DNA of 64,000 bases, taken from the IMG/VR virus record IMGVR_UViG_3300037189_005453, positions 1-64,000 of that record, one strand, 5' to 3'. Of this stretch, positions 4,194-43,813 are shown piece by piece (positions within the stretch are counted from its first letter, which is position 1; the number at the start of each line of letters is the position of its first letter). The position numbers and the translations under genes are program-made. The notes beneath the pieces were generated by a model that saw only the letters and a program-made list of their open reading frames with translations, had not been told where the DNA came from and ran no database searches. Source of the DNA: a virus.

Positions 4194-4625
4194 ATGATCG
4201 TCAGTAAAGCATTACTCACTAGTAAGACAGAAGATTGGGCAACCCCCGATGTGCTGTTTGCTGAGTTGGATGCTGAGTTTAGCTTCACTTTAGATGTGTG
4301 TGCTGACAAGACCAATAATAAGACCCCCGCGTTTTTTGATAAAGAAACTGATGGACTATCCCAGCCTTGGACTGGAGTGTGCTTTATGAATCCCCCGTAC
4401 GGCCGCACCATAGGCTTGTGGGTCAAGAAAGCGTATGAGTCCAGCCTCGAGGGGGCTACTGTAGTCTGCCTAGTTCCTTCGCGCACCGATACGGCATGGT
4501 GGCATGACTACGCCATGAAGGGTGAGCTTCGTTTTATCCGCCGACGTTTGAAGTTTGTTGGCAGTGATGGCGTTCGTCGTGAAGCGCCCTTTCCTTCGGC
4601 CATCGTGATCTTTCGGCCCATTTAG
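4194..4625 (+). CDS. phage DNA N6-adenine methyltransferase (Dam-like)
   Basis: DWATP, FTLDVCA, catalytic NPPY, VPSRTDTAWW, PFPSAIVIF. Confidence 0.93.
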   Translation: MIVSKALLTSKTEDWATPDVLFAELDAEFSFTLDVCADKTNNKTPAFFDKETDGLSQPWTGVCFMNPPYGRTIGLWVKKAYESSLEGATVVCLVPSRTDTAWWHDYAMKGELRFIRRRLKFVGSDGVRREAPFPSAIVIFRPI

Positions 4626-9708: not shown

Positions 9709-11163
9709 ATGTTCGCAGTCATTCTTCAAGAAGGACTAACCACCCCCCAAGGTATGCTGTACGGAATTCGTCAGTATGCCGTCATCCCTCAAGCAGACGG
9801 CACTGTTCGTAAGCTTGTCCGAGACGGCAAGAACCTGCGTGGTACAGCAGGCGCTTGGCGACCTCTTGACTTTGTTGTGTCAAGCAACAAGGCCGTGGGT
9901 AACCCTGTTGCCATCTCGATTACTGCGAGTGATTACGAAGACCTCAAGTCTTCCAACACTCCTACAGTTCTTATGCAGAAGCTGGTTCGTACCGTAAAGG
10001 ACATGAACGAGCTAAGTACTGAGAACTTTGTAGACCAGTACAACGAGGTGTTCGTCAAAGCAGAGAGTTCACCTCATCTGCTCTCTGAGTACCTAGGTAA
10101 CACTGTTCCTGTAGCAGTAAGCCCCACCATTCAAGTTGTACAACAGCCAGTTGTACAGCCTGCCTTTGAGTATGTAGAACTACCACCAGTTCCTGCTTAC
10201 TCATCAGTTGCTCCAGTAACCATTGAAGCAACACGTGAACAGTATGGCTTTATCGAAGAGCCATACACCGTCCCGACAGAAAGTGAGACTCCCATGGAGT
10301 ACAGCACCACAATGCCGATTAAGGATGACACTCAGTCAATCCTTACGGTGCCAGATATTCACCCGTACTATCCACGCAAGTTCTTTGGTAAGACCGAGCG
10401 TGAGATTTACGACACAGCCAGAATGTTCCAGGAGAACGTTCTGCTTACTGGTGATGCTGGTACTGGTAAGACATCCTCTGCACGTAACTACGCAGCAGAG
10501 AATGGTTTGCCGTTCGTAACCATCGAGTGCACACAGCAGATTGACCAAGGTGTGACCCAAGGGTCGTTCGTACCCACTGGTCAGGGTAACGGTGTCAAGT
10601 GGAAGTACAGCCAGCTTGCCACTGCTATCCAACAGCCCAGTGTCATTCTGATCAATGAGTTGACTCGTATGAGTCCTAAAGCAGCGTCGTTGTTCCTACG
10701 CCTGCTTGAGGAGCGTGAGTTGCTCATCGAGCCAATGAACCAGGTCATCAAGGTACACCCTGGTGTACTGTTCATTGCTGACCAGAACACTGGTATCGGT
10801 TACACAGGTACAAGCAAGCAGGATGCTGCTCTTGTTGACCGCTTCAACATCAAGTTGGAGTTCCATTACGACACCAACATCGAGAAGAACTTCATCAAGT
10901 CTCCTACTCTCTTGGCCTTTGCGAGTAACATCCGTGAGGCCAGTGAATTGAACGATGAGTTCTCGGTGCCAATGTCTACTCGACTGCTCAAGAACTTTGT
11001 GTCTCAGGCATCACGCCTCAACTTCGAGTTCGCAGTCAACTCAATGCTCTCCAACTATCCCAAGATGGATGGTGAGCGTGACGCTATCAAGATGCGGTTC
11101 GACGCTGATGTCTCACAGATTGCTGATGAGCTTGGCGTTCCTCTAGGTGGTTACTCCATCTAG
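9709..11163 (+). CDS. MoxR/CbbQ/NorQ/CobS-like AAA+ ATPase with N-terminal extension
   Basis: Walker A GDAGTGKT, Walker B-like VILINE, HPGVLFIADQN, DAALVDRF, STRLL. Confidence 0.9.
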   Translation: MFAVILQEGLTTPQGMLYGIRQYAVIPQADGTVRKLVRDGKNLRGTAGAWRPLDFVVSSNKAVGNPVAISITASDYEDLKSSNTPTVLMQKLVRTVKDMNELSTENFVDQYNEVFVKAESSPHLLSEYLGNTVPVAVSPTIQVVQQPVVQPAFEYVELPPVPAYSSVAPVTIEATREQYGFIEEPYTVPTESETPMEYSTTMPIKDDTQSILTVPDIHPYYPRKFFGKTEREIYDTARMFQENVLLTGDAGTGKTSSARNYAAENGLPFVTIECTQQIDQGVTQGSFVPTGQGNGVKWKYSQLATAIQQPSVILINELTRMSPKAASLFLRLLEERELLIEPMNQVIKVHPGVLFIADQNTGIGYTGTSKQDAALVDRFNIKLEFHYDTNIEKNFIKSPTLLAFASNIREASELNDEFSVPMSTRLLKNFVSQASRLNFEFAVNSMLSNYPKMDGERDAIKMRFDADVSQIADELGVPLGGYSI

Positions 11164-11170
11164 TCAGTAT

Positions 11171-11199
11171 GGGTGGGGGCATTAGCCCCCACCCCTTTT
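11171..11199 (+). terminator. GC-rich hairpin with short U-tract between AAA and vWA genes
   Basis: GGGTGGGGG-CATTAG-CCCCCACCC-CTTTT. Confidence 0.5.
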
Positions 11200-11215
11200 C
11201 TAAGGAGAAAAGAAA

Positions 11216-13042
11216 ATGGATGAACAATCCACAAATGATGTGTTCGATACCCCCGAGCCATTCACTGTTACTAACAACCACGTCATCAGTGCAGAGCAGA
11301 CGCGACGCGCTCGTATGCTTCAGGTTGTTGGTAAGTTTGCCAGCACTCTTACGCTTCGTTCCATTGGCGTTGAGTTGTCAGGTAAGCATGACCGCAATCA
11401 CCAAGACGCCCCTGCTTGGTCAGATGCTGACAACATTTGGTTCAACGAGGATGAGCTAGGTGACCTCAGTGACTTCGACACCGTGCTTAGCATCAAGGGT
11501 CTTAGCCTCCACGAGATTAGTCACATTATGCTGACGCCTCGTAACGGTAGCAACCTTGCCAAGGAGGTACAACGTCAGGGTCTATGGCGTGCGTTCAACT
11601 CACTCGAGGACCAGCGCATCGAGATGATGATGAGCAAGCGTTTCGGTAACGTAGCTGACTGGCTGTGTGCTGCTGTAGCTAAGTTCATTATGGAGGATCC
11701 CTCCCAATGGACAACGTGCTTCCCGCTCCTTCACGGCCGTAAGTTCCTACCTGCCGAGTTGCGTGCACAGGTTGCTAACCTGTACGAGAACCAAGAGGAT
11801 GTTGTTCGACTCAAGCAGTTGATTGACTCCTACATCGTGCTTAACCTTGTTGACCCGCAGAACTTCCCCACTGCTCTCAACATCATCGCTGAGTACGACG
11901 CTCTTGTTAACAAGCTTGGTCCTAATCCACAGGATAGTTCGTGGCAACCACAGACTGGCTGGGGTCGTGTCAAAGACCCCAACGGTCACCAGTCACGCAA
12001 GGATGGTGAGCTTAAGTCATCCAAGTCCAAGCCTATGAGCAAGGCTGAACAGCAGAAGCTCAGTGATAAGGTCGAGGGTGCAGTGCAGGAGGCTAACCAA
12101 GCTGACGCACAGGGTAGCCCGCAGTCATCTGAACCACAAGCTGGTGACTCTCCAAGTAGTTCTGCTAGCTCTCTCTCTTCTATCCTTGAGGATATCCTGG
12201 AGGACATCAAGGAGAAGAAGCACAAGGAGATCCAACAGATTATCAAGCAGTACAACGGTGAGGTTGAGTTGACATCCATCAACGCAGGTACTCCTCAGCG
12301 TCCACACTGTTCTCCTATGGCTGTAAGCAATGCCACAGTGCAAGCCTCTCGCTCTTTTGCCAATGAGCTTGAGCGTTTGCGCCGTGACTATGACCCTGGT
12401 TGGAACCGACGCACCTCGTCAGGTCGCCTCAATGTTCAGCGTTATGTCACTGACGTTGACATCGAAGAGTGCTTTGACCAGTGGGACCTTGGCCGTGAAG
12501 ATGCTGTAGACATCGAAGCAGTCATTCTCCTTGACGTGTCTGGTTCGATGGGTTCTCACTCCATTGGTTCCTTTGAGTCTATGTGGGCTATCAAGCGTGC
12601 GCTTGACAAGGTCAACGCCAGCACTACGGTCATCGCCTTTGACAATGACACGCACCTCATCTACTCAGCCAATGAGCGTGCTGGTCAGCAGATGAAGTAC
12701 ACCAACCAGTGGGGTGGCACTGACCCCTATGAAGCACTGCGTTACAGCCGTAACATCTTGGCGCAGTCTAGCCGTGCCATCAAGCTGTGCATCGTTATCA
12801 CTGACGGTATATGGAGTAACGAGGAACAGTGTAACAAGCTGATCCGCGAGTTCCGTCGTGCAGGAGTTATCACTGCTCTTGGTTATATCGTTGACCGTTA
12901 CTACATCGACAACGGTTACCGATTCAACATCGACAGCCACGGATGTGAGGTAGCTGTCAACATCAGCCAGATGCCTGAGCTGTTCACCTTAGCCCGCAGT
13001 ATGGTTCGTCTGGGTATCCAGCGTAACCTTATCGCCAGCTAG
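11216..13042 (+). CDS. CobT-like vWA-domain protein with N-terminal HExxH domain
   Basis: LHEISH...LEDQRIE; MIDAS DVSGS, GGTD, ITDG. Confidence 0.9.
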   Translation: MDEQSTNDVFDTPEPFTVTNNHVISAEQTRRARMLQVVGKFASTLTLRSIGVELSGKHDRNHQDAPAWSDADNIWFNEDELGDLSDFDTVLSIKGLSLHEISHIMLTPRNGSNLAKEVQRQGLWRAFNSLEDQRIEMMMSKRFGNVADWLCAAVAKFIMEDPSQWTTCFPLLHGRKFLPAELRAQVANLYENQEDVVRLKQLIDSYIVLNLVDPQNFPTALNIIAEYDALVNKLGPNPQDSSWQPQTGWGRVKDPNGHQSRKDGELKSSKSKPMSKAEQQKLSDKVEGAVQEANQADAQGSPQSSEPQAGDSPSSSASSLSSILEDILEDIKEKKHKEIQQIIKQYNGEVELTSINAGTPQRPHCSPMAVSNATVQASRSFANELERLRRDYDPGWNRRTSSGRLNVQRYVTDVDIEECFDQWDLGREDAVDIEAVILLDVSGSMGSHSIGSFESMWAIKRALDKVNASTTVIAFDNDTHLIYSANERAGQQMKYTNQWGGTDPYEALRYSRNILAQSSRAIKLCIVITDGIWSNEEQCNKLIREFRRAGVITALGYIVDRYYIDNGYRFNIDSHGCEVAVNISQMPELFTLARSMVRLGIQRNLIAS

Positions 13043-13081: not shown

Positions 13082-13864
13082 ATGCCTAACTGGGTACAAA
13101 ACCGAATAACAGTAATAGGCCCTGAGAAAGACCTTAGGGCTTTTGCCGAACACCTCAAGGTAAAACCGCGACTGTTCGCGGATGAGGAAATAGGTCTTTC
13201 ATTCCACAGCTTCGTTACAGATGAAACGCTTGACGAGGCGACCTACCGCGAAGGACCAACAGAGTCTAAGGACTATTGGTACAACTGGAACAACAACCAC
13301 TGGAACACTAAGTGGGATGCGTGTGAGGTTACGGTGTATGAGCGTGGTCCGCACACACCTGAGAGTGGTGACGCTCCTACACAGCTTATGGCTGTTGACC
13401 TCGAGTTCAGCACAGCGTGGTCGGCCCCAGGGCCTGTGTTCCAAGCGATGTCTGAGCAGTGGCCTACACTTCAGTTCCACGTTTGGTGGGAAGAGGAGCA
13501 AGGGTTCGGTGAGGAGTTCCGCCTACACTCTGGAGGCACGATACTTATGCTTGACTCTTGGGATATCCCAGACTGTCACGATGACTATGACCGTCGAGGT
13601 AATGCCGAAAATTGCGTCTGTGCCTGGAACGAAGACAAGGGTGATTGGTATGATGACTGCCCTGGTAAGACCAACATCGTCTACACCGTAGATGTGATCA
13701 CGCGCTATACGGTTGTAGCAGACAGTGAGGAGAAAGCAATCCTTACGGTGCAAGCAGAGGAGTCTGGTTATGACCTGCCAGATAACTCGGTTGTCAGAGG
13801 TGTCCTATACTCTGAGGACTACAAAGTAACTGGGTCAGAGGAGGTAAGTACAGATATTGAGTAG
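13082..13864 (+). CDS. DUF1281/YubB ferredoxin-like family protein
   Basis: MPNWVQN, WYNWNNNHWNTKWDA, FSTAWSAP, WEEEQGFG. Confidence 0.8.
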   Translation: MPNWVQNRITVIGPEKDLRAFAEHLKVKPRLFADEEIGLSFHSFVTDETLDEATYREGPTESKDYWYNWNNNHWNTKWDACEVTVYERGPHTPESGDAPTQLMAVDLEFSTAWSAPGPVFQAMSEQWPTLQFHVWWEEEQGFGEEFRLHSGGTILMLDSWDIPDCHDDYDRRGNAENCVCAWNEDKGDWYDDCPGKTNIVYTVDVITRYTVVADSEEKAILTVQAEESGYDLPDNSVVRGVLYSEDYKVTGSEEVSTDIE

Positions 13865-14042
13865 ATTCGGATGGTGTATGGACAACAATGATGAGTCGTG
13901 CATCGTCTCATTCCAGTGGAACAGTGGCACAATCCAGTGCGACTGTAAGTGTCACAAGGAGATAAAAAATGACGAAACCACTAAGCAAGGTAAGCCTCAA
14001 AGTACAGCAAGAGGAAAGAGAAAGAGCAGCACAGATAGTTGA
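13857..14042 (+). CDS. hypothetical Cys-rich protein
   Basis: GGAGG RBS, TTG start, CDCKCH. Confidence 0.5.
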   Translation: MSRFGWCMDNNDESCIVSFQWNSGTIQCDCKCHKEIKNDETTKQGKPQSTARGKRKSSTDS

Positions 14043-15455: not shown

Positions 15456-15622
15456 TGATGGATAAGGAAGAAATCCTGGCGTATGTGCGTAAGCGCGTAC
15501 AGGAGATCGAGAACGACATGGATGAGTGGGGGTTCGGCCCCGAAGATATGGATGAATGGACGCAGGGTAACTACGAAGCGTACAAGCATCTGTTTACAAT
15601 CATTATCGGAACAAAGGAGTAA
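15455..15622 (+). CDS. hypothetical protein (55 aa)
   Basis: GGAGG RBS, TAATG coupling. Confidence 0.65.
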   Translation: MMDKEEILAYVRKRVQEIENDMDEWGFGPEDMDEWTQGNYEAYKHLFTIIIGTKE

Positions 15623-15626
15623 TAAA

Positions 15627-15932
15627 ATGCAGTACTACAAAGAACTAGATTCAGAACTGGCGAACTGTTTAGGCACTGACCCTGACATGTTCTTTCCCGA
15701 TGCTGGTGACCGTTGGGCACTCGGCAAAGCACAAAAGATATGTGCAGTGTGTGACATCCGAATGGACTGCTTGCAGGTAGCCCTAGACAACGATGAGAAA
15801 GAAGGTATCTGGGGAGGTGCGGGAATGACAGCACGAAAGAAAATGAAAAAAGACCCCGCAGCCCGCAAAGAGCACGAACGTGAAATGCGTAAACTCGCTA
15901 AGGAAATAAATAAAGGAAAAAAGAATGGCTGA
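15627..15932 (+). CDS. whiB: WhiB family transcription factor
   Basis: C...DPDMFFP...ICAVCDIRMDC...GIWGG; AAGGAG RBS before MQYYK. Confidence 0.95.
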   Translation: MQYYKELDSELANCLGTDPDMFFPDAGDRWALGKAQKICAVCDIRMDCLQVALDNDEKEGIWGGAGMTARKKMKKDPAARKEHEREMRKLAKEINKGKKNG

Positions 15933-16709: not shown

Positions 16710-17189
16710 ATGCAGACATTCATGCCCTCTGTTAACTACACAGAGACAGCAAGTATGCTGGACAACAAGCGCCTTAATAAGCAAGCGCTAGAAGGCTGGC
16801 AGATTCTTATGAACCTGCTCGAGCTAGACCCCGAAGGCAATTACCGTGCTCCTAAAGGTTGGAGTAATCACCCCGCAGTTAAGATGTGGCGTGGCTACGA
16901 GTGGTCACTCTATACATACATCCAAGAGATGGTTAAGGAGTGGAAGCGACGTGGGTTTAAGTCAACCATTGGAGACAAAGCGACTAAAACGTTCCTTGTC
17001 TTTAATAAGCGACCACTAACACTCGAGCACCCTGATTGGCTCGAAGACATGCGCACATCAGACTCGGTTACATCAAGCCACCGCCTGGCCTTGCTTGTCA
17101 AGGACTACGAGTGGTACTCTCAATTCGGATGGGAAGAAGACCCTGGCTATCCTCCCGTCGATTACGAATACACCTGGCCAGTAGAGTAA
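16710..17189 (+). CDS. pyrimidine dimer DNA glycosylase-like protein (MSMEG_6728/DenV-like family)
   Basis: MQTFMP, LDNKRLNKQALE, GWSNHPAVKMWRGYE, SHRLALL, YTWP. Confidence 0.88.
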   Translation: MQTFMPSVNYTETASMLDNKRLNKQALEGWQILMNLLELDPEGNYRAPKGWSNHPAVKMWRGYEWSLYTYIQEMVKEWKRRGFKSTIGDKATKTFLVFNKRPLTLEHPDWLEDMRTSDSVTSSHRLALLVKDYEWYSQFGWEEDPGYPPVDYEYTWPVE

Positions 17190-17575: not shown

Positions 17576-19054
17576 CTAGCCTTCTAGGTTGTTCTGGATA
17601 ATTCTGGTTGTTTGATCCTCATTCAGAGGCTGTTGCATCTCCTTTAGAGCACTTGCTCGGTCTCCAAAAATAGCACTTAGCACGCCGCCAGAACTCTCTC
17701 GAGACGCGGTGATTTGTACAAACTCTTTGTCGGTTTCTAGGTCCTTCATGTTACCTACCAACTTAAACAAGCGGTCTATCTCCTGTGACACATTTGGGTC
17801 AGCGTAGCCGCCATTTAGCTCCTCTTGGAATCGCATGAATGCCACCCTTTGGCCCTGCATTTCAACGATTGTGGTCAACAACGCTTTCAATTGATCCTTT
17901 GTCTTAACCTCCACTGGCAGGTTAAATCCACAGGTACTTGCGGCCTTGAATGCTGGACAATTTGCTGCGACAAAACACGTGTCGCATTGTCTTACGCTCC
18001 CATAATTGGACTGAACAACTGGTACGTCCTTTAATACTTCACGCCCATCTTCGGTCTCTACAACGGTCTTCATGTTGTATCCAAAAACAGGCATCGAAAT
18101 GACCTCTTGCGGGTCTCTTTGCGTAACTTCTGCTCCTTCAGGTTTCCGCTTTTCTAAACCACTGTTATTAGAAACCACCCCCCCTATTTCCATCAAACCT
18201 GTGTATAGGGTGTCATCACTGTTATCAGATACTTTATCGTTATTGGGTCGCTTTGCCATTGTCTTCTCTAACTGTAAATAGGACCAAACTGCTACTTTGG
18301 TTGCTTCCTTCGTGTCATCTTCTACGAACTTTGTGAAATCTAGCCCAGCTTTCTCCACGACTGTTTTGTAACGCAACCGTGCCTGGGCCTTCATTTTTTT
18401 TGGATACCTGGCCAATCTCGCTCCGTCGTACACAATGGTTTCTCCATTACGCATTGGCGACAACCAGGACAACGTGCTGACAGAATCAAACGGGATGCTT
18501 CGCAAATTATCTGGTTTTGCGGTCCCCAATCCGTGAATGCGTACATCGTACGCTCCTTTGATCCTACGGATTACGCTCGATAACACTGGCACACTATCAA
18601 TCGCTGCGCCAGAAATGGCTACATTGCTCCACTCTGCCGCCCACTGTTCCAACAACGGAACACTGTACGCTTCGTGCCAAACTACCCACAATTTTGGATC
18701 GTTTTCATACACTGCGCGGTTTTGCACAATGTCGTGCAATCCCAATACTTGTGAATCAAATTCGGTGAACCCCTCGATGCGGTCGTAATTCATCGCGATG
18801 AACTCTTCGTAATCCGACGCGTAGGCTTCCAACTCTCCTTTGGACAGGTTGGCTTTGTCTGCCTGCGTTGCTCCGCTATCTACCCAAACTTTCATCTCTG
18901 GCAGGAAATGCTCACCAATCAGGTACGGTTTTGTTTTTGGCAAACCACGCTTACGGAGGCCCCAGTAATTCAACATTACGTTGTTTACTCCCATGGACTC
19001 CAACAGCGTCCTGTTGCTGGGGATTTCTACCCCACTAAAAATGATCTCACTCAA
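17576..19054 (-). CDS. TGT/DpdA-like (queuine tRNA-ribosyltransferase fold) domain fused to a Cys4/helical C-terminal domain
   Basis: VWVDSGA, VVWH, RIHGLG, PFDSVSTLSW; C-terminal CDTC..NCP..C. Confidence 0.7.
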   Translation of the reverse strand: MSEIIFSGVEIPSNRTLLESMGVNNVMLNYWGLRKRGLPKTKPYLIGEHFLPEMKVWVDSGATQADKANLSKGELEAYASDYEEFIAMNYDRIEGFTEFDSQVLGLHDIVQNRAVYENDPKLWVVWHEAYSVPLLEQWAAEWSNVAISGAAIDSVPVLSSVIRRIKGAYDVRIHGLGTAKPDNLRSIPFDSVSTLSWLSPMRNGETIVYDGARLARYPKKMKAQARLRYKTVVEKAGLDFTKFVEDDTKEATKVAVWSYLQLEKTMAKRPNNDKVSDNSDDTLYTGLMEIGGVVSNNSGLEKRKPEGAEVTQRDPQEVISMPVFGYNMKTVVETEDGREVLKDVPVVQSNYGSVRQCDTCFVAANCPAFKAASTCGFNLPVEVKTKDQLKALLTTIVEMQGQRVAFMRFQEELNGGYADPNVSQEIDRLFKLVGNMKDLETDKEFVQITASRESSGGVLSAIFGDRASALKEMQQPLNEDQTTRIIQNNLEG

Positions 19055-19532
19055 AATTCAACGCCTCCGTACGTGACAATCGGGCGTCTTGTGTCCTTAA
19101 TGAATTTTGCTCTTCTATGGCCTTTTCAATATCATTCCATGCGCGCACTCTCTTTGGCGCATCTGGTCTGAACTCTGGCCGCGTATAACTTGGCACGCCA
19201 AACATCATCGCTGCGATTCCCTGCTCGAATGCAAATGCCCACAGTGTCGGATCATTTGTGATAAACAAATCCACTGCTCCAATTGAACGGGCAAATGTGA
19301 TCTGTCGCTCGCCCAGCTTCTCATCAACCAGGCTCACGGATGAATCAATAATCTTATCAAAATCAACAATTTTGTTGACATCCAACCACTGTTGTGTTAA
19401 CTTCGCGTCCAGCGGTGACATCAACGTGATTTTATTCCACGCACTTAACGACCCAACCGTGATAACCCCTTGGGAAATCGGTTGGTCGTTCGGGCCCCTC
19501 AGTACGCCATCTAAATCCACCAATATTTGCAT
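19047..19532 (-). CDS. HAD-superfamily-like protein
   Basis: N-terminal ILVDLDGVL (DxD motif I). Confidence 0.7.
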   Translation of the reverse strand: MQILVDLDGVLRGPNDQPISQGVITVGSLSAWNKITLMSPLDAKLTQQWLDVNKIVDFDKIIDSSVSLVDEKLGERQITFARSIGAVDLFITNDPTLWAFAFEQGIAAMMFGVPSYTRPEFRPDAPKRVRAWNDIEKAIEEQNSLRTQDARLSRTEALNFE

Positions 19533-19642
19533 TAATAATCCTCGTCATCAGCTCCATTGCAATCACACTTGCAATAATCGTCGGTGCATATGCCCTTCAG
19601 CAATTCGTGCCCGCACCAATGACAATAATCTGTTATGGACAC
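19532..19642 (-). CDS. 36-aa Cys-rich peptide
   Basis: GTG start overlaps upstream TAG and stop overlaps downstream ATG; MSITDYCHWCGHELLKGICTDDYCKCDC... Confidence 0.55.
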   Translation of the reverse strand: MSITDYCHWCGHELLKGICTDDYCKCDCNGADDEDY

Positions 19643-20517
19643 TAATTGTTCCTATACAACGCCGCGCGGCGAACTAATGTGTCTGCGTCTGGCAACTCGA
19701 CATGTTGCGTCAGGTTTGTTTTCATGTACTCACGAATGGCGCGCAACTTGTCAATTGTTCCATAACGCTTGCCCAACTGCCAACGATAATTGTTGAAATC
19801 GTTGTATCCTTGGCCCTCTGACGAAAATGCGATTGATCTATTTTCGTGAATCTCGTTATACAACGCGTTGGCCTGCGCAGCGGCCATCGTCATTTTGTTT
19901 TCCGCATTACGCTTCATAGGACCATTGGATGACATCTGAACATCCTGTAATGCTCCATTAAAACGGTTATGTGCTGACTCTGCCATTTCGGCATCGCGCT
20001 TTGCAATCTGATCCCACTCGGCGTTCCACATCGGTGTCTGATTTGGATCGGGGGTTACTGTCCAGTCGTCATGCTTCAAATCGTACGCTGCGTACGGCTT
20101 AATTGCACGGATATTTGTGGCTGAAGGATTAACATAAAACGTCAGCTCATAACCATTCCAGTTGGACGTCTGCAACTGCAGGTTTTCGTGAAACTCTTCG
20201 TTGAGTTCCGCTGCAATTTCTCTGTCTGACAACCCTGTAAACTCTGGGTTTGCCTTACGGAATTGAATAAAATTTACCCCAACCAGGCAATCTAGGTCAC
20301 CTGGTTCTCGGGCAGCCTCCCACTGGTATGAAACACCAGACCCAGCTAACCACGGTTGCGCCCACAGTTCTGGGTGTCGGTAATGGAGGTTTAGGAAATC
20401 CATCAACAGTGCCATTATTCCTTGGCGCACCCACGAACGGAGGACCCGCCCTTCAAAAAGGGTCGGGTCCAACGTGGTCGCTGGGTGGCTGAAATAACTT
20501 GTCGGGTATACAGTCAT
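19642..20517 (-). CDS. Pol-beta superfamily nucleotidyltransferase
   Basis: WLAGSGVSYQW...GDLDCLV (hGS..DxD), YELTFYV; leaderless (TAAACT-6 nt-ATG). Confidence 0.8.
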   Translation of the reverse strand: MTVYPTSYFSHPATTLDPTLFEGRVLRSWVRQGIMALLMDFLNLHYRHPELWAQPWLAGSGVSYQWEAAREPGDLDCLVGVNFIQFRKANPEFTGLSDREIAAELNEEFHENLQLQTSNWNGYELTFYVNPSATNIRAIKPYAAYDLKHDDWTVTPDPNQTPMWNAEWDQIAKRDAEMAESAHNRFNGALQDVQMSSNGPMKRNAENKMTMAAAQANALYNEIHENRSIAFSSEGQGYNDFNNYRWQLGKRYGTIDKLRAIREYMKTNLTQHVELPDADTLVRRAALYRNN

Positions 20518-23379: not shown

Positions 23380-26300
23380 TTACTTCTTAAAGAATTCGGG
23401 GTGAGTTTGGGGAGTAGGTGACGGTGCTTTGGTAGCGTCAATTGCCTTTGTAATACGCTGACCCTTGGTTGTTTTCTTTGCTGCGGGCTTCTTAGCCGCT
23501 GGCTTCTTTTCCGCAGGCTTCTTGGCTGTAGACTTCTTGGCTGCAGGCTTCTTAGCTCCTTTAGCCACTGCTGATCTTTCAGCAGTTGCAGGGGTGATGT
23601 CACCAGACATAGTTGCGGCCAGCTCGTCGCGAGTCTTTGGAATCTGTCCAATTGAACGAGGACCACCACTGGGAACAGGTTCGGGTCGGAATCCAGCTTG
23701 ACGCTGATCCCAACGAATGCTCTGCTCCTTCTCCAGCTGCTTTTTGATTGCGTCTTCATCGCGCTCTTCAACAGGCTTTTCAGGAGCTTCAATTTCAACG
23801 TCCTCGGCTTTACGTCCAATACCAGACTGGGTAACGTTGGGAGACTCTTTACCGAGAGACGCAACGTGGACTCCACGGTTTACTACAGGAACAGGTGTGG
23901 CCTGGACTGTCTCGGGAGCAGACTCTCCTGTTCTCCACTGGACCTGTTCCTCTGACTCTGCACCAGTTCCAGAACGCTGACCGTCGATATCCATCGGTAG
24001 TCCCTTTTCGCGACCACGAAGTCGGGAAGTTGATAGTCCTTTAGAACGCTTAATAAACTCTCTAATGATGTCCTTTGGAACACCTGAGAAGTCTGGGTGG
24101 CCTTCTTTAATCATTTTACGAGCGATGTTGAGCTTTTCCTTCATACCCTCGTCGGCCAGGTTAAACGTGTCTTCGCTTCCGTTTAGATCAACACCTGTTG
24201 GAACGTGTGTGATCTTGTACATGGTTTTTCCATTAGCGTCCTGGGATGTCTCAACCTTAATCTTGGGGCCCAGGTCAGCAGCATGAACAATCGAGGCAGG
24301 AATCGGGTTAGTTTTAACTGTCTGAGTACGCTCCGACACCTTACCTGCACGGTTGAACTTGACCTTTGCGTCACGCTTAGCAATCTTCTCAGTTTCATCC
24401 AGGTTTAGGGGAGAAGGCGCGCGCCCTACGGCGTCTGCAACGTGAACGTACTTGTTAACGGGTTTTTCTCCTTTAACAGACAGTTCATCTCCACCACCGT
24501 AGGAAAGTTGCTGGTGAATGTCCTTAATCGTGGCGATGTGCTTTACCAGCTCTTTACGAGCAAACTCACCTGCTTCACGACCAGATACGATCTTTTGCTG
24601 TGTTGCGCGAACTCCGCCAGGAGTCGGGCTGTCAGAGAAGTCGAGGGCAACCCGCGGGAGATGCTGTTGGCCCAGGTATCCCTTGATACGGTCAAGGGCG
24701 GCCATCGTCTTAACAAGGCGGGCGGCCTGTGTCTGAATGTGCTTGTGGACTTCAGGAGCACCGTATGCGAGGGTCGGTGATGCGGTCCACTCACCATTAG
24801 CGTCAAGGATCTTTCCCACCTGCTGTCCGCGACCATCTGTCACAGTATTGTCAGCGGTTGCTGCCGCTGGGGTGTGGGTAATTGATCGAATGTGCGCGGC
24901 AAGGCGCTGAGCTGCGCCGTGTACCTCAGTGAGGGTTTTGAGTGGACTTTGATATAGCGCACCCGAGTCAGTGTTGGCGAGTTCTGATGCCAGGCTTGGT
25001 TTTTCGGGCTCGCGCTCTGTGTTAACTGCGGTAAAGGAGTTGGGGGTTGCCTGTTTCTTTACCCAGTTCTTCTGGGCATCGGCCAGATATGGCTCGGCCG
25101 CTGCGTTTTCCGCTTCTTGCTCTGGGGTTAGCTTATTGCGCTTTTTACCCGTGTGACGAGTGTGCGGCAGTGAGTAGCCACTTATCTCGTCAAAGTGAAG
25201 GAGGTCTTTTCCGCTCTTCTTGCTGGCAGTCTTTGGGGATTTGTACCCCTCAAGACCACGCCACTGAGGCGAACTCTGGTCTTCTGGAAGAGCGGTGTAC
25301 TTGGTTGGGTGGTACTTGGTTCCATCAACCGCGTAAGGTTTGGTAGGAATGTGGCCTTCCAACCCTTCCCAGTCCTCGTGTGATCGGTCGGATGGCAGGG
25401 GGAAACCTGTCCTGGGGTGATATGGGAGGCCGCCCTGGAAGAACGGACGAGTCCTGTCGATGATAATATCCTGGGGAACATGGGCTTCCCAGTTGCTGTG
25501 TACGCTCATATCACGTTCTGGAGCCTCTTCGGCACGCTGTCTACGAGCTTCGCGTTGAGCTGCCTCTGCGTCCTTCAGGGTTTCAAAAGCCCCCCTAAAC
25601 GTACCGTTTCGCGAGCTGCCTCGACCTGTCATGCCCTGAACGATTTCTTCATTTTGGGCAGAGGTTCGTTCCGCGTTTTCGGCTCGTTGCTGCTCCCTTA
25701 CACTACGCTGTTGCTCCTGCTCGGGAGTAGCGGGGCTCGAGTCAATAGTGAGTCCTTTGCCTTGACCGCGAGGTGCAGTATTTGCGCGAATCGCGTCAAT
25801 CTCGGCCTGATGGGCTGCCAGCATTTCTGGAGTCTTTCGACGTCCTCTGTTAAGAGACTCAAACTGACGCTGCTTAGCGTCAACCCGACGCTCGTTATCT
25901 GCCTTAATAAGCTCTAGCTGTTTTGCACGCTTTTCGGGATCGTCATACTTTTCGGAAAGAGAAATCTCATTACCCTGGGGTTGGAAAATGCTAATTCTGC
26001 CGCCGAGTTCGTTTGTGGGGGTAACAAACGGCTTAGTTTCTTCGCTAGATTCCCCAATCTCTGGCATAACACCAGTACCTGCAGCAACTCCTGAACGTCC
26101 AAAAATGGCACGCTTAGTAAGCCCCTTTTCCCAAAGAGCTGCTCCCGTGCTATCAGGTTTCCCAATGCTTCGGTCGCGGTCTTTAACGCGGGCAGGCTCC
26201 CTGAGTCGACTAGGTAATGATGCCCCAATGCCGCCTACTCTTACGGGAGTCGGCTTTAGTGCCTGGCCCTTTTCGTCTGTTCCAAGTCGGCTCATAACCT

Positions 26301-26592
26301 GGTTGTAAATGTGGTGAGGGATAATGTGCTTAGGCCATGACTGGATGTCGGCGGATCGGACCTCACCGTTTTGAGGGTTGTACGGAAGCCTATTTCCCTG
26401 CTCATCCGCGTGAAATGCACTGTGAGTAACACCAGAGGATGTGGGTGCTTGATCGGCCGTGCGAACACGTGCAACGACCTGACTAATCAGGGCCTCATCG
26501 GGGTTGCGACCTGCAGCTGGCTGCTGTGAGCCACCGTCTTCGCTCCCTGCGCCACCGCGTGCTTGGTGAAATGCGCCGCTAGTACCAGCCAT
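23380..26592 (-). CDS. large low-complexity protein with C-terminal histone H1-like PAAKK repeats
   Basis: 1070 aa; AKKPAAKKSTAKKPAEKKPAAKKPAAKK; AGGAG RBS. Confidence 0.85.
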   Translation of the reverse strand: MAGTSGAFHQARGGAGSEDGGSQQPAAGRNPDEALISQVVARVRTADQAPTSSGVTHSAFHADEQGNRLPYNPQNGEVRSADIQSWPKHIIPHHIYNQVMSRLGTDEKGQALKPTPVRVGGIGASLPSRLREPARVKDRDRSIGKPDSTGAALWEKGLTKRAIFGRSGVAAGTGVMPEIGESSEETKPFVTPTNELGGRISIFQPQGNEISLSEKYDDPEKRAKQLELIKADNERRVDAKQRQFESLNRGRRKTPEMLAAHQAEIDAIRANTAPRGQGKGLTIDSSPATPEQEQQRSVREQQRAENAERTSAQNEEIVQGMTGRGSSRNGTFRGAFETLKDAEAAQREARRQRAEEAPERDMSVHSNWEAHVPQDIIIDRTRPFFQGGLPYHPRTGFPLPSDRSHEDWEGLEGHIPTKPYAVDGTKYHPTKYTALPEDQSSPQWRGLEGYKSPKTASKKSGKDLLHFDEISGYSLPHTRHTGKKRNKLTPEQEAENAAAEPYLADAQKNWVKKQATPNSFTAVNTEREPEKPSLASELANTDSGALYQSPLKTLTEVHGAAQRLAAHIRSITHTPAAATADNTVTDGRGQQVGKILDANGEWTASPTLAYGAPEVHKHIQTQAARLVKTMAALDRIKGYLGQQHLPRVALDFSDSPTPGGVRATQQKIVSGREAGEFARKELVKHIATIKDIHQQLSYGGGDELSVKGEKPVNKYVHVADAVGRAPSPLNLDETEKIAKRDAKVKFNRAGKVSERTQTVKTNPIPASIVHAADLGPKIKVETSQDANGKTMYKITHVPTGVDLNGSEDTFNLADEGMKEKLNIARKMIKEGHPDFSGVPKDIIREFIKRSKGLSTSRLRGREKGLPMDIDGQRSGTGAESEEQVQWRTGESAPETVQATPVPVVNRGVHVASLGKESPNVTQSGIGRKAEDVEIEAPEKPVEERDEDAIKKQLEKEQSIRWDQRQAGFRPEPVPSGGPRSIGQIPKTRDELAATMSGDITPATAERSAVAKGAKKPAAKKSTAKKPAEKKPAAKKPAAKKTTKGQRITKAIDATKAPSPTPQTHPEFFKK

Positions 26593-30347: not shown

Positions 30348-30520
30348 TACCAGTCCTTTGAGGTTAAAGTTTCAATAACACCTTTGATAAGATCTGCGGC
30401 GTAAGAATCTGTGACATTTGAGACCATCTCTTCTAGGAAAACCACGATCTCATTGCGCTCGGTTCGCATACCTTCAACAAACCAAGATAAAGACACAAAG
30501 TCTTCGTCAGGGCTAGTCAT
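30347..30520 (-). CDS. hypothetical protein (G-x3-ERNEIV motif)
   Basis: Likely start MTSPDE overlapping upstream stop. Confidence 0.6.
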   Translation of the reverse strand: MTSPDEDFVSLSWFVEGMRTERNEIVVFLEEMVSNVTDSYAADLIKGVIETLTSKDW

Positions 30521-30950
30521 TGGGCCACGTTCCTTCAAGAACCATCATTGCAATGATCGAGTAGTTTGCCAGGTCCAGGAAGGAGTCACGGAGGCTCTCA
30601 TTCTCTGGTGTTGCACCGTTATCAATCAGGTGATTAATACGAGCAAGCTTGTCCCACATGCGAACACGCAAACCATTCAGGGGGCCACCAGGGCTTTGAG
30701 AAATGTTCTTGGGGCCGTAGTCCTTGTGCTTCTGTAGCAAGACTGCTTTAGCGTGCTGAAACTCCTGCTGTACAGATTCGTTGAACTCTTTGTTGGGGTC
30801 GTAATTGCGGATGCGCTCGACCAAGAACTCTGGAAGATCGTCGATTTCTCCCAGTCGTTTGTTCTCCTTAATCCATTCGCTGATGTCTACTGTTGCGGGG
30901 TCAATGCCCTGCTCCTGCAGTTCAGTGAAAATCTCTTTCATCTTGCCCAT
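30513..30950 (-). CDS. DUF1599 / nucleotide-modification-associated domain protein
   Basis: KHKDYG...RMWDKLARI...ESLRDSFLDLANYSII. Confidence 0.8.
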   Translation of the reverse strand: MGKMKEIFTELQEQGIDPATVDISEWIKENKRLGEIDDLPEFLVERIRNYDPNKEFNESVQQEFQHAKAVLLQKHKDYGPKNISQSPGGPLNGLRVRMWDKLARINHLIDNGATPENESLRDSFLDLANYSIIAMMVLEGTWPND

Positions 30951-31405
30951 TAGTAGTCCTTTCGTATTGCCCAAGATTCGTTTGAGCGTCGTGTAATTTC
31001 TCGGCTTACGAGTGAGAGGTCTCGCTCGTGATTGGAGAGAAGCATCTCTACCAACTTACGATAAGCGTACTTCTCTTCGTAATCGTTGTCAAGGTCGACA
31101 ACATCCTGGCTTACGGCGATCTCTGCTTTTACGGCAGTGATTCGTTCGCCCTTAACTTGTGCGCCCATTCTTTTTACAAGGAGGGTGTTCTCTAGGTAGT
31201 CCCGCTTCTTTAAAGCTGCCCGCTCTTCTAGCTGTGCCATGGTCAACTGTGAAGCAATGTAGTCGGTCCAGGAAGTCAGCTCTGTAAACAAACGCCCTAG
31301 TTCGTCTGAGGAGATGTCTGTAATATCGGCAGGGAGCCGTACTTGATCTCCTTCGGGGCGATGAAAAGCAAGGCCCCATCCTTCAAACTTTTTTACTGCA
31401 CTCAT
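30950..31405 (-). CDS. helical protein, possibly a UvsY-like recombination mediator
   Basis: Coiled-coil pattern, located in the RecA/nuclease cluster. Confidence 0.5.
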   Translation of the reverse strand: MSAVKKFEGWGLAFHRPEGDQVRLPADITDISSDELGRLFTELTSWTDYIASQLTMAQLEERAALKKRDYLENTLLVKRMGAQVKGERITAVKAEIAVSQDVVDLDNDYEEKYAYRKLVEMLLSNHERDLSLVSREITRRSNESWAIRKDY

Positions 31406-34923: not shown

Positions 34924-35334
34924 TTACTTGTACTTTCTTGGAATTTCCAGTAGGCCCATGTCAATGAGTTGCGAAACCGAACCCATTAACGCGGATAGCG
35001 AGACTTGTTCCATCATCTTTCGGCTTTCCCACCAGATTTCGGATGGGATTTCTCCCAGTTCATCAGGTAAGTTTTCTTTTTGAAACTCAATTGCTCCTTC
35101 AGCTAGAAGGTGCACCTGAGCAAAGAGTAAAGGAACAAGATAGGATATTTTTGCGATTCGCTTGTCGCTCTCTTCCTCTTCGCGCTCCATGACCTCATCG
35201 CTTATCGCAGCACATCCGAGGATAACGCTCAGTTCATGAGCGTTGTTAATCTGCGAGTCAAGGATAAGTCCACGAATGCGATTCGTAAGATCAGCCAGGG
35301 TAATTGCCGTTTGTTTTTTCTTTTTAAGCCACAT
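34924..35334 (-). CDS. hypothetical protein
   Basis: 136 aa, coupled to polA. Confidence 0.75.
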   Translation of the reverse strand: MWLKKKKQTAITLADLTNRIRGLILDSQINNAHELSVILGCAAISDEVMEREEEESDKRIAKISYLVPLLFAQVHLLAEGAIEFQKENLPDELGEIPSEIWWESRKMMEQVSLSALMGSVSQLIDMGLLEIPRKYK

Positions 35335-37346
35335 TATTTTGCTTCACCCCACTTGTTTACGATCTTAACGTCAGCAATTAGAGGGACGGTAATCTGGGGA
35401 AGACGAATGCCTTCCATAGACTCACGGATAGCCTCTGCTACTTGTTCCGCTTTGTTTTCTGGTGTAATTGTCACAAGTTCATCGTGTACCGTAAGAATCA
35501 CGTTTACGTCGGTCTCATTCACGAAGCAGGAGTGTGCTCTCACGAGCGCCAACTTCATAAGGTCCGCTGCTGATCCTTGAATCATAGTGTTAAATGCTTG
35601 ACGTTCTGCACGACCAAGAGCCGAAAAGTCCTTGGTGTTCAGTTCTGGAATATAGCGACGACGGCCAAACATGGTCTCTACAAACGGGATTTTTCCCGCT
35701 TGTTTTGCGTCACGTATGACCTTTGCCTTGTACTTTGCAATTGAAGAAAATCGCTCCTCAAATCGATTAAGGAGGTCTTTTGCTTCTTTTACAGTACAGC
35801 CGATGGAGGCTGCGATCTTGTCTGGACCCACCCCGTATGAGATGGCCAGAACCAAAACCTTACCAGCCTTGCGATCTACTCCCATGGTATCACCAATGGT
35901 TGTGTAGATGTCTCCACCCGATAGGTAATTCTCAATCATGACGGGATCTTGGGAGAAACTCGCGATAACTCGCGGTTCAATTTGAGAATAATCCGCTACA
36001 ACAAGCTTGTATCCAGGGGGAGCAACAAATAGATCACGGACCAGTTTTCCGTACTCTCCTGAAGAAGGAATGTTCTGTAGGTTAGGGCCACTGGAAGAGA
36101 ATCGACCAGTGTCTGCGCCATCTGCACGGAAGTTAGTGTGAACACGTCCGTTTATGAGGAGACTTTTACGTTCTGTAATCTTTTCTTTACCCTTAGTCAC
36201 TCGCTTAACTTCACCGCCAGTGTAGGGAGTTACGTAGGTAGTCATCAACTTGTTGAGGTCTTGGTACTCCAAGATTGCGTCAACTAAAGGATCTTTACCT
36301 CGATAAAACTCGAGTGCCTCAGCAGAAACCGAGTAATGAGTGTGGCTAGGATCGTCACCGTTCTTCATAGCCTGGTATCCCTTAGGAGTAAAGGCAACTT
36401 TAAGCTTCGGATTTGGCGCGGGCAGTCGTGGAGATTCTCCGCCAAACAACAGCAGTTGCTTTTCTGGAACTGAGTTGATTGGGAAAGGTTTGCCTGCCTC
36501 TTTATAGACTCGGCCCTCTGCCTCTACCTTACCTCGCTCTACCTCTTTGGCAAGAGTTTCCAGGGCATCCTGGTCGATGTAAGCGCCAGTCAACTCCATA
36601 TCGCAAAGTGCTGACAGCACGTCCATCTCAAGTTTCCACACACGCTTGAGGTTGCCCGTGATCTGTGGCTCGAGCGCCTTGTATAGTTTCCAGGTAACCT
36701 CTGCGTCAATTCCCGAGTACTTTGCAACATCGCTGAAGGAGTATAGGGCTACGTTTTCTCCAATGCCCTTCTCAACTTCAATGCCCAGCTCACGCTTTAC
36801 ACAAGCTGCCAGGCTCACACCAGATCCAAACTTAACCAAGTTGTTGATAATAAATGCAGCCATCATGGTATCAAAGTGGGGCTTTGAGGGTACCTGGCCC
36901 TTGTAATACTTGGCTACAGACTTAAGGTCGAACTTAGCGTTGTGTGCAATCTTGAGAGCAGAGCCAAACATCAAAGGCTGAATAGCGTCGAATACCTGCC
37001 GTGGGGTGAGTTGTTTTGGTGGCTCGCTGAACTTGGGAACCCACTTTGATTGGTCCTTTGAGTAGTGCGCGTCAGTAAGCGGCTTGCCCTCAGCAAGGCG
37101 ACGGACTCCAGGAGTGAGCAGTGGCTTGTCCCAGCCCTCTAACTCACCGTTGGGGTGACCCATTGGGATTACGTCTACGTGGATCTCTCCATTGATTTCA
37201 GTGGAAAAAGAAACCCAACACACGTCGTTGATAACGGGGTACAGACGGTCATCCCCGATGGTCTCTACGTCCCATGCAAATGCGGGAACTTTGGAGTAGC
37301 GACGGACAAAGTCCTGAAGTTGCTGCTCAGTTGTAATGATATTCAT
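35334..37346 (-). CDS. polA: family A DNA polymerase with 3'-5' exonuclease
   Basis: DVET, HNAKFD, TGRFSSSGPNLQNIP, ADYSQIE, KVLVLAISYG, QGSAAD, VHDEL. Confidence 0.97.
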   Translation of the reverse strand: MNIITTEQQLQDFVRRYSKVPAFAWDVETIGDDRLYPVINDVCWVSFSTEINGEIHVDVIPMGHPNGELEGWDKPLLTPGVRRLAEGKPLTDAHYSKDQSKWVPKFSEPPKQLTPRQVFDAIQPLMFGSALKIAHNAKFDLKSVAKYYKGQVPSKPHFDTMMAAFIINNLVKFGSGVSLAACVKRELGIEVEKGIGENVALYSFSDVAKYSGIDAEVTWKLYKALEPQITGNLKRVWKLEMDVLSALCDMELTGAYIDQDALETLAKEVERGKVEAEGRVYKEAGKPFPINSVPEKQLLLFGGESPRLPAPNPKLKVAFTPKGYQAMKNGDDPSHTHYSVSAEALEFYRGKDPLVDAILEYQDLNKLMTTYVTPYTGGEVKRVTKGKEKITERKSLLINGRVHTNFRADGADTGRFSSSGPNLQNIPSSGEYGKLVRDLFVAPPGYKLVVADYSQIEPRVIASFSQDPVMIENYLSGGDIYTTIGDTMGVDRKAGKVLVLAISYGVGPDKIAASIGCTVKEAKDLLNRFEERFSSIAKYKAKVIRDAKQAGKIPFVETMFGRRRYIPELNTKDFSALGRAERQAFNTMIQGSAADLMKLALVRAHSCFVNETDVNVILTVHDELVTITPENKAEQVAEAIRESMEGIRLPQITVPLIADVKIVNKWGEAK

Positions 37347-43098: not shown

Positions 43099-43512
43099 TT
43101 AAATGTTTTGTATTTCAATGCCCCAAGAGCCGAAGCGAGCGACTGTTCCTGGATTGGCGATAACGCCTTTGAAGTTTGCTTTGTACGGTAGTTCGTCAAT
43201 CAGTTCTTGCAGATCGTCGTACAGGTAAGAATAATTAAAAGGGTTTCCACCACGGTTGTCAAGTTTGTCCATCATTTTGGACAAAGATCCCTCTGTCCAC
43301 CCGAGATCTTCTGTGGCTGCTAGCTCAAGAGATAGACCATATTTGTAGGAGATGTCCCACAGGTGTTTAAGGTTTTCTTTGATCCACTTTGTTTTAGGAA
43401 CCTGAACTTTACGAAGACCCTTTCGTTCTTCTGAAAAAGTAACCTCTGCTACGACATCAACCATCACAACAAGTCGTGGCGGTGTTTCGTTGGAGATGTC
43501 TCCGTTAATCAA
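43099..43512 (-). CDS. hypothetical protein
   Basis: 137 aa, GAGG RBS. Confidence 0.75.
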   Translation of the reverse strand: MINGDISNETPPRLVVMVDVVAEVTFSEERKGLRKVQVPKTKWIKENLKHLWDISYKYGLSLELAATEDLGWTEGSLSKMMDKLDNRGGNPFNYSYLYDDLQELIDELPYKANFKGVIANPGTVARFGSWGIEIQNI

Positions 43513-43813
43513 TTACCTCAACCTTGCCGTACTTGATAACAAAATCACGGAATGATTCGGCGCTCTTCATGGCAGCTATGGCGATGTTCTCATCAACATC
43601 TACGGGGATCTGGATTGAATAGTGGCCGTCGTTCTCTTCCATTGCGTCTTTTACAAACTTTATGTGCTTACACTTAGCAAGGCGCTGGAATCCTTGGCAC
43701 GTGCAGCGAGCTTTGTTGTGGTTTTCTTGATCTACTTCAACCTCGACTACGCCGTAGTCTTCTAGAAACAGCTGTACGGTTCTCCACGCAATATCCATAT
43801 TTACATCTTTCAT
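43505..43813 (-). CDS. SWIM zinc-finger protein
   Basis: CTC...CKH. Confidence 0.75.
   Translation of the reverse strand: MKDVNMDIAWRTVQLFLEDYGVVEVEVDQENHNKARCTCQGFQRLAKCKHIKFVKDAMEENDGHYSIQIPVDVDENIAIAAMKSAESFRDFVIKYGKVEVID

Follow-up and report, generated by a model that had tools for sequence, protein, structure and literature searches.

Our analysis of a 64,000-nt stretch of viral DNA, positions 1 to 64,000 of the IMG/VR record IMGVR_UViG_3300037189_005453 (the window in what follows), shows that in one transcription unit purifying selection holds the dinucleotide CT, chiefly CTY, off the message strand, which is the same as holding AG, chiefly RAG, off the template strand. The depleted zone is a conserved five-gene unit encoding Cys-rich, 100-aa, nucleotidyltransferase (NTase)-fold, HAD-like and TGT-fold proteins, and all of its genes lie on the - strand, so that it is the message that is without CTY and the template that is without RAG. 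This ban, as we will call it, is achieved by context-dependent synonymous choice in all three reading frames and extends to the spacers. The window is part of a parent genome of 79.5 kb that is ~85% complete; coordinates are those of the window, in which position 1 is arbitrary.

An exact count of the + strand between 18001 and 20100 gives 29 AG dinucleotides (22 CAG, 6 TAG, 1 GAG and no AAG) and 160 CT. An earlier note on this DNA had arrived by hand at precisely these figures for AG, AAG and GAG and had called CT abundant; its expectations were too high, since more than 100 AG and about 25 each of AAG and GAG become ~93, ~21 and ~18 when computed, and the strong deficit stands. Within the core of the zone (Table 1) the sole RAG is the GGAGG at 18956, on either side of which the core is empty for 1187 and 1168 nt, against an average RAG spacing of 29 nt. 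The next-largest RAG gaps in all 79.5 kb measure 352, 286 and 254 nt and every one of them lies within the same operon, while the AAG gap, at 43 times its mean spacing, is the most extreme among all 64 trinucleotides. On these measures the depletion is well outside genome-wide variance and far beyond chance. Above the core, the shoulder retains between about a third and a half of the normal density up to ~23.4 kb, and a weak tail continues until ~28 kb, so that the gradual fade towards ~22 kb previously described is real. The several-fold higher AG content of polA is also borne out: the family A polymerase gene at 35334-37346 has ~4-5 times more. The gene at 23380-26592 (-) encodes a 1070-aa low-complexity protein rich in Lys, Ala, Pro and Glu and is not polA; this protein has no family match and no homologue among the relatives. 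Low message-strand CTY (4-11 per kb) is also seen in small genes at 13857-14042, 15483-15932 and 43505-43813, and at 65618-65857 of the genome. Each is borderline significant on its own, and the phenomenon might extend to them in a weak form.

The identity of the avoided word emerges from counts on the message strand of the core, with the message strand of the other - strand genes as the baseline and figures given as seen/expected. CTT is gone (0/44) and CTC nearly so (1/37); then follow ACT (4/48), TCT (4/39), CTA (8/35), GCT (12/37), CCT (15/35) and CTG (25/43), and CT overall stands at 35/159. The tetranucleotides CCTG and GCTG are undepleted, and other pyrimidine words are near normal (TTT 41/42, TCC 23/31, with TTC and CCC little altered). 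Pooled survival of CT by the following base is 0.08 for T, 0.21 for C, 0.63 for A and 0.89 for G, and by the preceding base 0.86 for C, 0.40 for G, 0.38 for A and 0.22 for T. This hierarchy of contexts makes the core word CTY when read on the message and RAG when read on the template, which upholds the template word RAG as the earlier note wrote it. The message strand in the zone is also C-poor and G-rich.

The nucleotide word itself, and not the choice of codon, is what the zone avoids. Across codon junctions C|T occurs 7 times where 30 are expected from the genes' own composition, and control genes show no such deficit; NAT outnumbers NAC by 21:2 where the next base is T, and the two are otherwise used at ~1:1. 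Leucine is written as TTG, TTA or CTG in place of CTT, the favourite of the genome, the Thr codon ACT is unused (0/40) and NCT codons have almost disappeared. When the same proteins were recoded with genome codon usage they contained 179 +/- 9 CT, and when the genes' own synonymous codons were shuffled among positions 90 +/- 4 were found; the observed number is 61, so that the deficit exceeds both resampling controls by more than 6 standard deviations. At residues identical to those of a ban-free relative, CT-containing codons number 90 in the relative and 35 in the window, and their replacements run in many directions (CTT to TTG; GCT to GCA, GCG or GCC; ACT to ACG; TCT to AGC; also CCA and others). 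Codon bias is ruled out by the junction and permutation tests and pressure from a single type of mutation by the spectrum of replacements. The earlier claims that all codon positions are hit and that gene boundaries are crossed are confirmed by the junction deficit and by the purged intergenic spacers, and selection at the level of DNA rather than codon bias has proved the right description in view of the junction and context tests, the resampling, the replacement spectrum and recurrence in relatives.

For that recurrence we examined 26 IMG/VR loci with the TGT-like gene (58-82% identity, same gene order), and whole genomes (G000-G005) were scored separately. About half of these 26 uncultured relatives share the ban, always on CT. 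It is strong in L002, L009/L010, L017 and L012, moderate in L019, L021, L026 and L005, and weak in L003/L004, L007 and L015. Over the whole genome, no genes deviate further than those of the module in G000-G003 (z -4 to -6), and G004 and G005 have no outlier gene. The banned word is identical across the four genomes, with a CT z of ~ -10 and a TC z of ~ -5; in the window the loss of TC is largely that of TCT. No alternative banned word was found in the ban-free modules. Orthologous regions of some relatives thus lack the depletion (e.g. L008, L013) and others keep it (e.g. L002, L009), so that the earlier expectation of a depletion shared by relatives holds in part, and the ban is a polymorphic trait under selection, not noise. 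Trees of three module proteins group the ban-free core relatives in one clade, a few residues vary along with the trait, and the ban-free state of L008 looks like a loss. In the mosaic L018 (7600-11500) the upstream genes are purged and the TGT-like gene is normal, and L021 shows the reverse over the same interval, which indicates that lineages with and without the ban have recombined. We found no phage gene that all genomes with the ban carry and those without it lack; the only candidate to score in 4 of 4 is an antisense open reading frame over a conserved gene. The window encodes a phage Dam-family N6-adenine methyltransferase (4194-4625, +; PF05869, 1.5e-27), which is missing from five complete or near-complete relatives and was rejected for this reason as a gene tracking the ban.

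The ban has the shape of a transcription unit. Its emptiest part is always the HAD-like gene together with the greater part of the TGT-like gene; upstream of these, density increases gradually. In the window, the HAD-like gene has no CTY and 10 CT per kb and is the emptiest gene of the genome, and the TGT-like gene has 3.4 CTY per kb, its final 190 nt lying outside the desert. A B12-type (class II) ribonucleotide reductase (RNR) gene lies directly downstream on the same strand in four relatives (L009 11599-13641, L017 11640-13685, L021 11659-13704 and L005 12145-14289, +), and in these the first 600-900 nt of the co-directional RNR gene are also CT-poor; successive 300-nt segments of the L009 gene contain 3, 3 and 3 CT, then 16, 31 and 28. 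When the next gene is convergent, as in the window, L002 and L012, CT density is normal at once. In L005 an HNH endonuclease gene on the opposite strand (11503-12084, -) is inserted between the TGT-like gene and RNR, and it leans the same way, weakly (AAA:AAG 13:1 vs 122:55). Because the ban runs into co-directional RNR and stops at convergent genes, it tracks the transcription unit, not a fixed DNA polarity nor simple DNA proximity. The earlier proposal of a directional signal for terminase, nicking or ejection near a genome end is left without support by this behaviour and by the arbitrary position 1, and the 'terminal repeats' of the relatives, 62-127 nt long and with differing start points, are circular assembly overlaps and not genome termini.

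The earlier naming of the module as NTase-HAD-TGT holds best for its last member, whose TGT fold is confirmed by Foldseek and phrog_887; NTase is suggested by a motif and weak matches, and HAD by a motif. The TGT-like protein matches phrog_887 at 2e-67 and has 36% identity to BRock gp36. Its AlphaFold model gave 113 hits in the PDB at E<=1e-3 with Foldseek, and all 50 of those listed are Z. mobilis TGT at a probability of 1.00; the model is of poor quality (pLDDT 50 overall, 65-90 over the N-terminal 175 residues), and the protein has no Pfam or PDB sequence match. A TIM-barrel TGT fold is thus supported for this 492-aa protein at the level of a predicted structure. Among relatives the S and G of its DSG motif are invariant and the D is nearly so. 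In the 291-aa protein the AGSG...DLDCLV motif is invariant; matches to the folds of LinB, CdnD/E, MNT and ANT reach only E 0.1-0.6 on a model with a pLDDT of 63, the corresponding Atlas clusters are named nucleotidyltransferase, and PF01909 occurs in 12% of one cluster. The 161-aa protein is assigned as putatively HAD-like from its N-terminal motif only. In its alignment L4 and G9-V10-L11 alone are invariant and both Asp columns of motif I vary, and it has no Pfam, PHROG or PDB sequence match; four of the five module proteins in fact returned nothing in these three sequence searches.

Taken together, the ban means that something reads the word site by site, on the transcript, on the template or on the exposed non-template strand, and that this matters for this operon only. 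The candidate we place first, held tentatively and at well below even confidence, is self-avoidance: the TGT-like enzyme of the operon would exchange guanine at RAG, and the operon would keep this target off its template strand. The banned word would then be the short recognition site of this base-exchange enzyme, which would work on the G of 5'-(R)AG-3' in DNA and treat each site singly. On the template strand such action would hinder RNA polymerase, for instance through the bound enzyme, through an intermediate (covalent or abasic) or through the bulk of the product, and on the non-template strand it would not. Since translation is coupled to transcription, the enzyme would be made beside its own gene and the producing operon would suffer most, so that the template would be purged with an effect that fades with distance along the unit; coupling could in this way account both for the restriction to one operon and for the fading. 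In favour of this reading, only the word on the template has a G in it, the TGT-like gene lies at the centre of the ban, and all TGT-superfamily enzymes known to us work on guanine. The grouping of the ban-free core relatives in one clade and the residues that vary with the trait also speak for a link with the enzyme. Short words are also what phage DpdA enzymes recognise: the published motifs are of 2-3 nt, GA and GGC for CAjan and GA for iggy (PMC7544227, PMC10484667). That an undescribed nucleic-acid modification system, in which the TGT-fold protein is joined by HAD-like, NTase-fold and Cys-rich proteins without preQ0 genes, acts at 5'-RAG-3' in DNA with template-strand sites hindering transcription seems to us rather doubtful.

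Several observations weigh against avoidance by the operon of its own TGT-like enzyme. QueC, PTPS/QueD and GTP cyclohydrolase I (FolE) were not found in G000-G004 (four complete relatives and the genome of the window) by searches that were positive in 10-14 of 14 control genomes and did not extend to QueE. At the position of the nucleophile Asp the window reads F-D-S-V where TGT has F-D-C-V, and the Asp column is variable in relatives (consensus 'IPFxTASTLSW'), as far as an alignment can tell. Because of the missing QueC, QueD and FolE and this unconserved column, filing the module as a 7-deazaguanine system is, on sequence grounds, unjustified. The same five genes occur without the ban in L008, L011, L013/L014, L016, L020, L023, L024 and L027, the Streptomyces phages BRock and GiJojo (~36% identity) are also free of it, and the normal TGT-like gene of L018 lies beside purged upstream genes. 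Elsewhere in these genomes the template strands of genes, replication genes of early appearance among them, have RAG at normal levels. Finally, 7-substituted 7-deazaguanines inhibit bacterial RNA polymerase in vitro mainly at initiation and give no ladder of stalled transcripts (PMC4838386).

The word may instead be read on RNA, in which case the mRNA of the operon would be kept free of CU(Y) to escape an endoribonuclease or other RNA-acting enzyme of host or phage. We regard this as possible, almost as likely as the TGT-like enzyme reading, and it best explains the transcription-unit shape. A one-strand, unit-limited pattern that enters RNR, ends at convergent genes and crosses the HNH insert weakly is expected of an RNA target, the purging of the spacers agrees with this, and the gradient around the core fits decay spreading from a cut. 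The on/off pattern in relatives could follow host range. Actinobacterial RNase E has a strong single-base specificity, RR|CNU (PMC10641625), and the WhiB of this phage hints at an actinobacterial host; the mycobacterial RNase E motif was itself rejected as the banned word, as CAT and CGT are undepleted (ratios 1.3 and 1.2). However, no phage gene tracks the trait and there is no evident reason for protecting just this operon. Base-pairing at surviving CU sites is not clearly higher than at other pyrimidine steps, and the steps behave alike. We also know of no ribonuclease specific for CU(Y), which counts against a target on RNA.

Nicking of the template by a frequent-cutting, strand-specific enzyme of the R|AG type, or a similar host defence from which a protective operon must stay transcribable, appears unlikely. 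A nick in the template strand stops RNA polymerase, which is a point in its favour. A strong RAG and weaker AG describe the site of the chlorella-virus nickase Nt.CviQII (R|AG), and M.CviQII methylates AG (PMC3017599). The strand-specific word of this pair of virus enzymes is identical to ours; however, that virus infects a eukaryotic alga, and the likeness to the present operon is one of word only. No nickase homologue turned up, though none was specifically sought, no phage gene correlates with the trait, and the only adenine methylase (4194-4625) is missing from all five relatives tested. Incoming DNA would moreover already be protected, and the depletion in RNR is not predicted by nicking.

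We consider it quite unlikely that it is the exposed non-template strand that is protected, from an enzyme (for instance a deaminase, a DarT-type ADP-ribosyltransferase or a thymidine-modifying enzyme) that would attack CT on single-stranded DNA in the transcription bubble of this heavily or critically transcribed unit. The pattern is indeed strand- and transcription-specific, the genome encodes a DUF1599 'nucleotide modification associated' protein, and DarT2 enzymes read four-base thymidine motifs on single-stranded DNA (PMC11543638). However, words of the DarT2 type (TNTC, TTT) are not missing here, TTT being found 41 times vs 42 expected and TC outside TCT being barely lower, and replication would expose the entire genome. 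The restriction to one operon is given no reason by this explanation. Lesions in the non-template strand do not block RNA polymerase, a further point against this explanation. As an observation of its own, the DUF1599 protein ('nucleotide modification associated domain 1', 30513-30974, -) gives a second hint that the phage possesses chemistry for modifying nucleotides or DNA.

Other selective readings are very unlikely. AAG and GAG are classical protospacer-adjacent motifs (PAMs) of type I-E CRISPR; only one strand is purged, however, and the ~50 PAMs per kb on the other strand would leave the DNA targetable, and the PAM ATG (CAT on the message) is undepleted. The C-poor, G-rich message could suit avoidance of Rho loading (YC); against this, and against a general effect on pyrimidine tracts, CCC, TCC, ACC, GCC, TTT and TTC are little altered. 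Codon adaptation to tRNAs fails the codon-junction test, and a polarity signal for packaging, ejection or replication is rejected because the ban follows gene orientation and co-transcription. The T4 endonuclease V-like pyrimidine dimer glycosylase encoded next to the module (16710-17189, +) also brought ultraviolet dimer avoidance to mind, which was discarded as TT is unchanged and the purged template word consists of purines.

A neutral origin is highly improbable, whether through local hypermutation or a skewed local pattern of mutation, the codon usage of a foreign source or an error of assembly. Mid-gene edges and the mosaics L018 and L021 are what imported patches would give, but the replacements cannot be traced to any one kind of mutation: TTG is two changes away from CTT, ACT became ACA or ACG, and NAC became NAT only before T. 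C-to-T pressure would spare CTT, ACT and GCT, in which it changes the amino acid, yet it is these that show the greatest loss. Lineages that come from many metagenomes, and in which synonymous positions are presumably saturated, ban the same word, and an independent assembly, probably of the source sample, contains 98% of sampled words. The earlier statement that the zone is not a sharp import is consistent with this, a foreign import being unlikely when the ban recurs in relatives whose module proteins are only 60-80% identical. A nucleotide search of phages with the window gave no near match.

Among known systems, phage DpdA 7-deazaguanine modification (CAjan, iggy) likewise combines a phage TGT-fold enzyme, a G-containing word of 2-3 nt and a module among replication and nucleotide-metabolism genes. 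The present module differs in being without QueC, QueD and FolE, in its unconserved putative nucleophile position and in its HAD-like, NTase-fold and Cys-rich partners, and is known from sequence alone; we are also aware of no report of a one-strand motif purge of the dpdA operon in DpdA phages. Escape from mRNA interferases is alike in that synonymous choice in every frame rids a message of a short word: mRNAs without ACA stay translatable under active MazF, and mqsRA lacks GCU. Here, in contrast, the word is CU(Y), a 4-kb phage operon with a graded edge is affected and there is no toxin gene nearby. Avoidance of restriction sites or PAMs by phages shares the selection against an enzyme's word, which is sometimes strand-asymmetric, as in T7, where all EcoP15I sites have one orientation; phage genomes avoid such long recognition words (4-8 nt) genome-wide, whereas here a 2-3-nt word is avoided in one transcription unit. 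Our literature search found no paper describing an operon-limited CT/AG ban, and we know of no published case in which one operon alone is almost wholly cleared of a 2-3-nt word on one strand. Motif avoidance is thus known as a kind, and its operon-limited, strand-specific form, selected in several diverged lineages and lost in others, is to our knowledge new.

The ban implies a frequent-site reader of DNA or RNA that is important to this TGT-like module and whose preference can be read off directly (RAG on the template, CUY on the message). It bears on the role of the widespread TGT-like/HAD/NTase modules without preQ0 genes, and on the question of a constraint imposed on phage transcription units by base modification or by a ribonuclease. 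If immunity of the operon to its own enzyme were the true cause, the purge would spell out the specificity of that enzyme, and similar footprints could be mined to predict the motifs of uncharacterised modification enzymes.

Table 1. Positions of the depleted zone, of the module genes and of sequence elements associated with them, in window coordinates.
Feature	Start	End	Strand	Remarks
Core desert	17770	20123	+	AAG 0, GAG 1 on +; hence CTT 0, CTC 1 on the message (-) strand
Shoulder, partial depletion	20124	23400	+	3-9 RAG per 500 nt vs ~10-20 in other - strand genes
Promoter-like site TTGCCA-17-TAAAGT	21444	21472	-	just 5' of module; consensus match only
Cys/His-rich protein, 189 aa	20846	21415	-	first gene of module; conserved in relatives
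100-aa module protein	20527	20829	-	conserved in relatives
Pol-beta-type nucleotidyltransferase-fold protein, 291 aa (putative)	19642	20517	-	AGSG...DLDCLV motif
HAD-like protein, 161 aa (putative)	19047	19532	-	N-terminus ILVDLDGVL (HAD motif I)
TGT-fold (DpdA-like) protein, 492 aa (predicted fold)	17576	19054	-	C-terminal Cys-cluster/helical part; phrog_887, Foldseek
Only CTY left in core	18956	18960	-	CCTCC at Leu33 of TGT-like gene
Conserved 11-mer TCTGATAACAG (message sense)	17563	17573	-	directly 3' of TGT-like stop codon

Two of the elements in Table 1 persist within or at the edge of the ban. The CCTCC is predicted to pair over ~13 bp with the TGT-like gene's own Shine-Dalgarno sequence GGAGG at ~19063-19070, with a fold z of just -1.7, and the same codon for Leu33 is present in L012 and L008 too. 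With the start of the TGT-like gene overlapping the end of the HAD-like gene, this pairing may form a translational-coupling switch. Further copies of the 11-mer TCTGATAACAG lie at 18219-18229, in the linker of the TGT-like gene, and, with one mismatch, at 18162-18172, and they explain several of the few surviving WCT sites. It is exact in ~20 diverged relatives, ban and ban-free alike, and in L003-L027 it is found near 10815-10910 and 11500-11523. The 11-mer is probably a binding site or an RNA element that persists inside the ban.

The remainder of the window encodes, in addition to the genes already mentioned, an Hsp20 protein (973-1500, -), a MoxR-type AAA+ ATPase and its VWA/CoxE-like partner (9709-13042, +), and a WhiB-like regulator (15483-15932, +), the last of which hints at an actinobacterial host.

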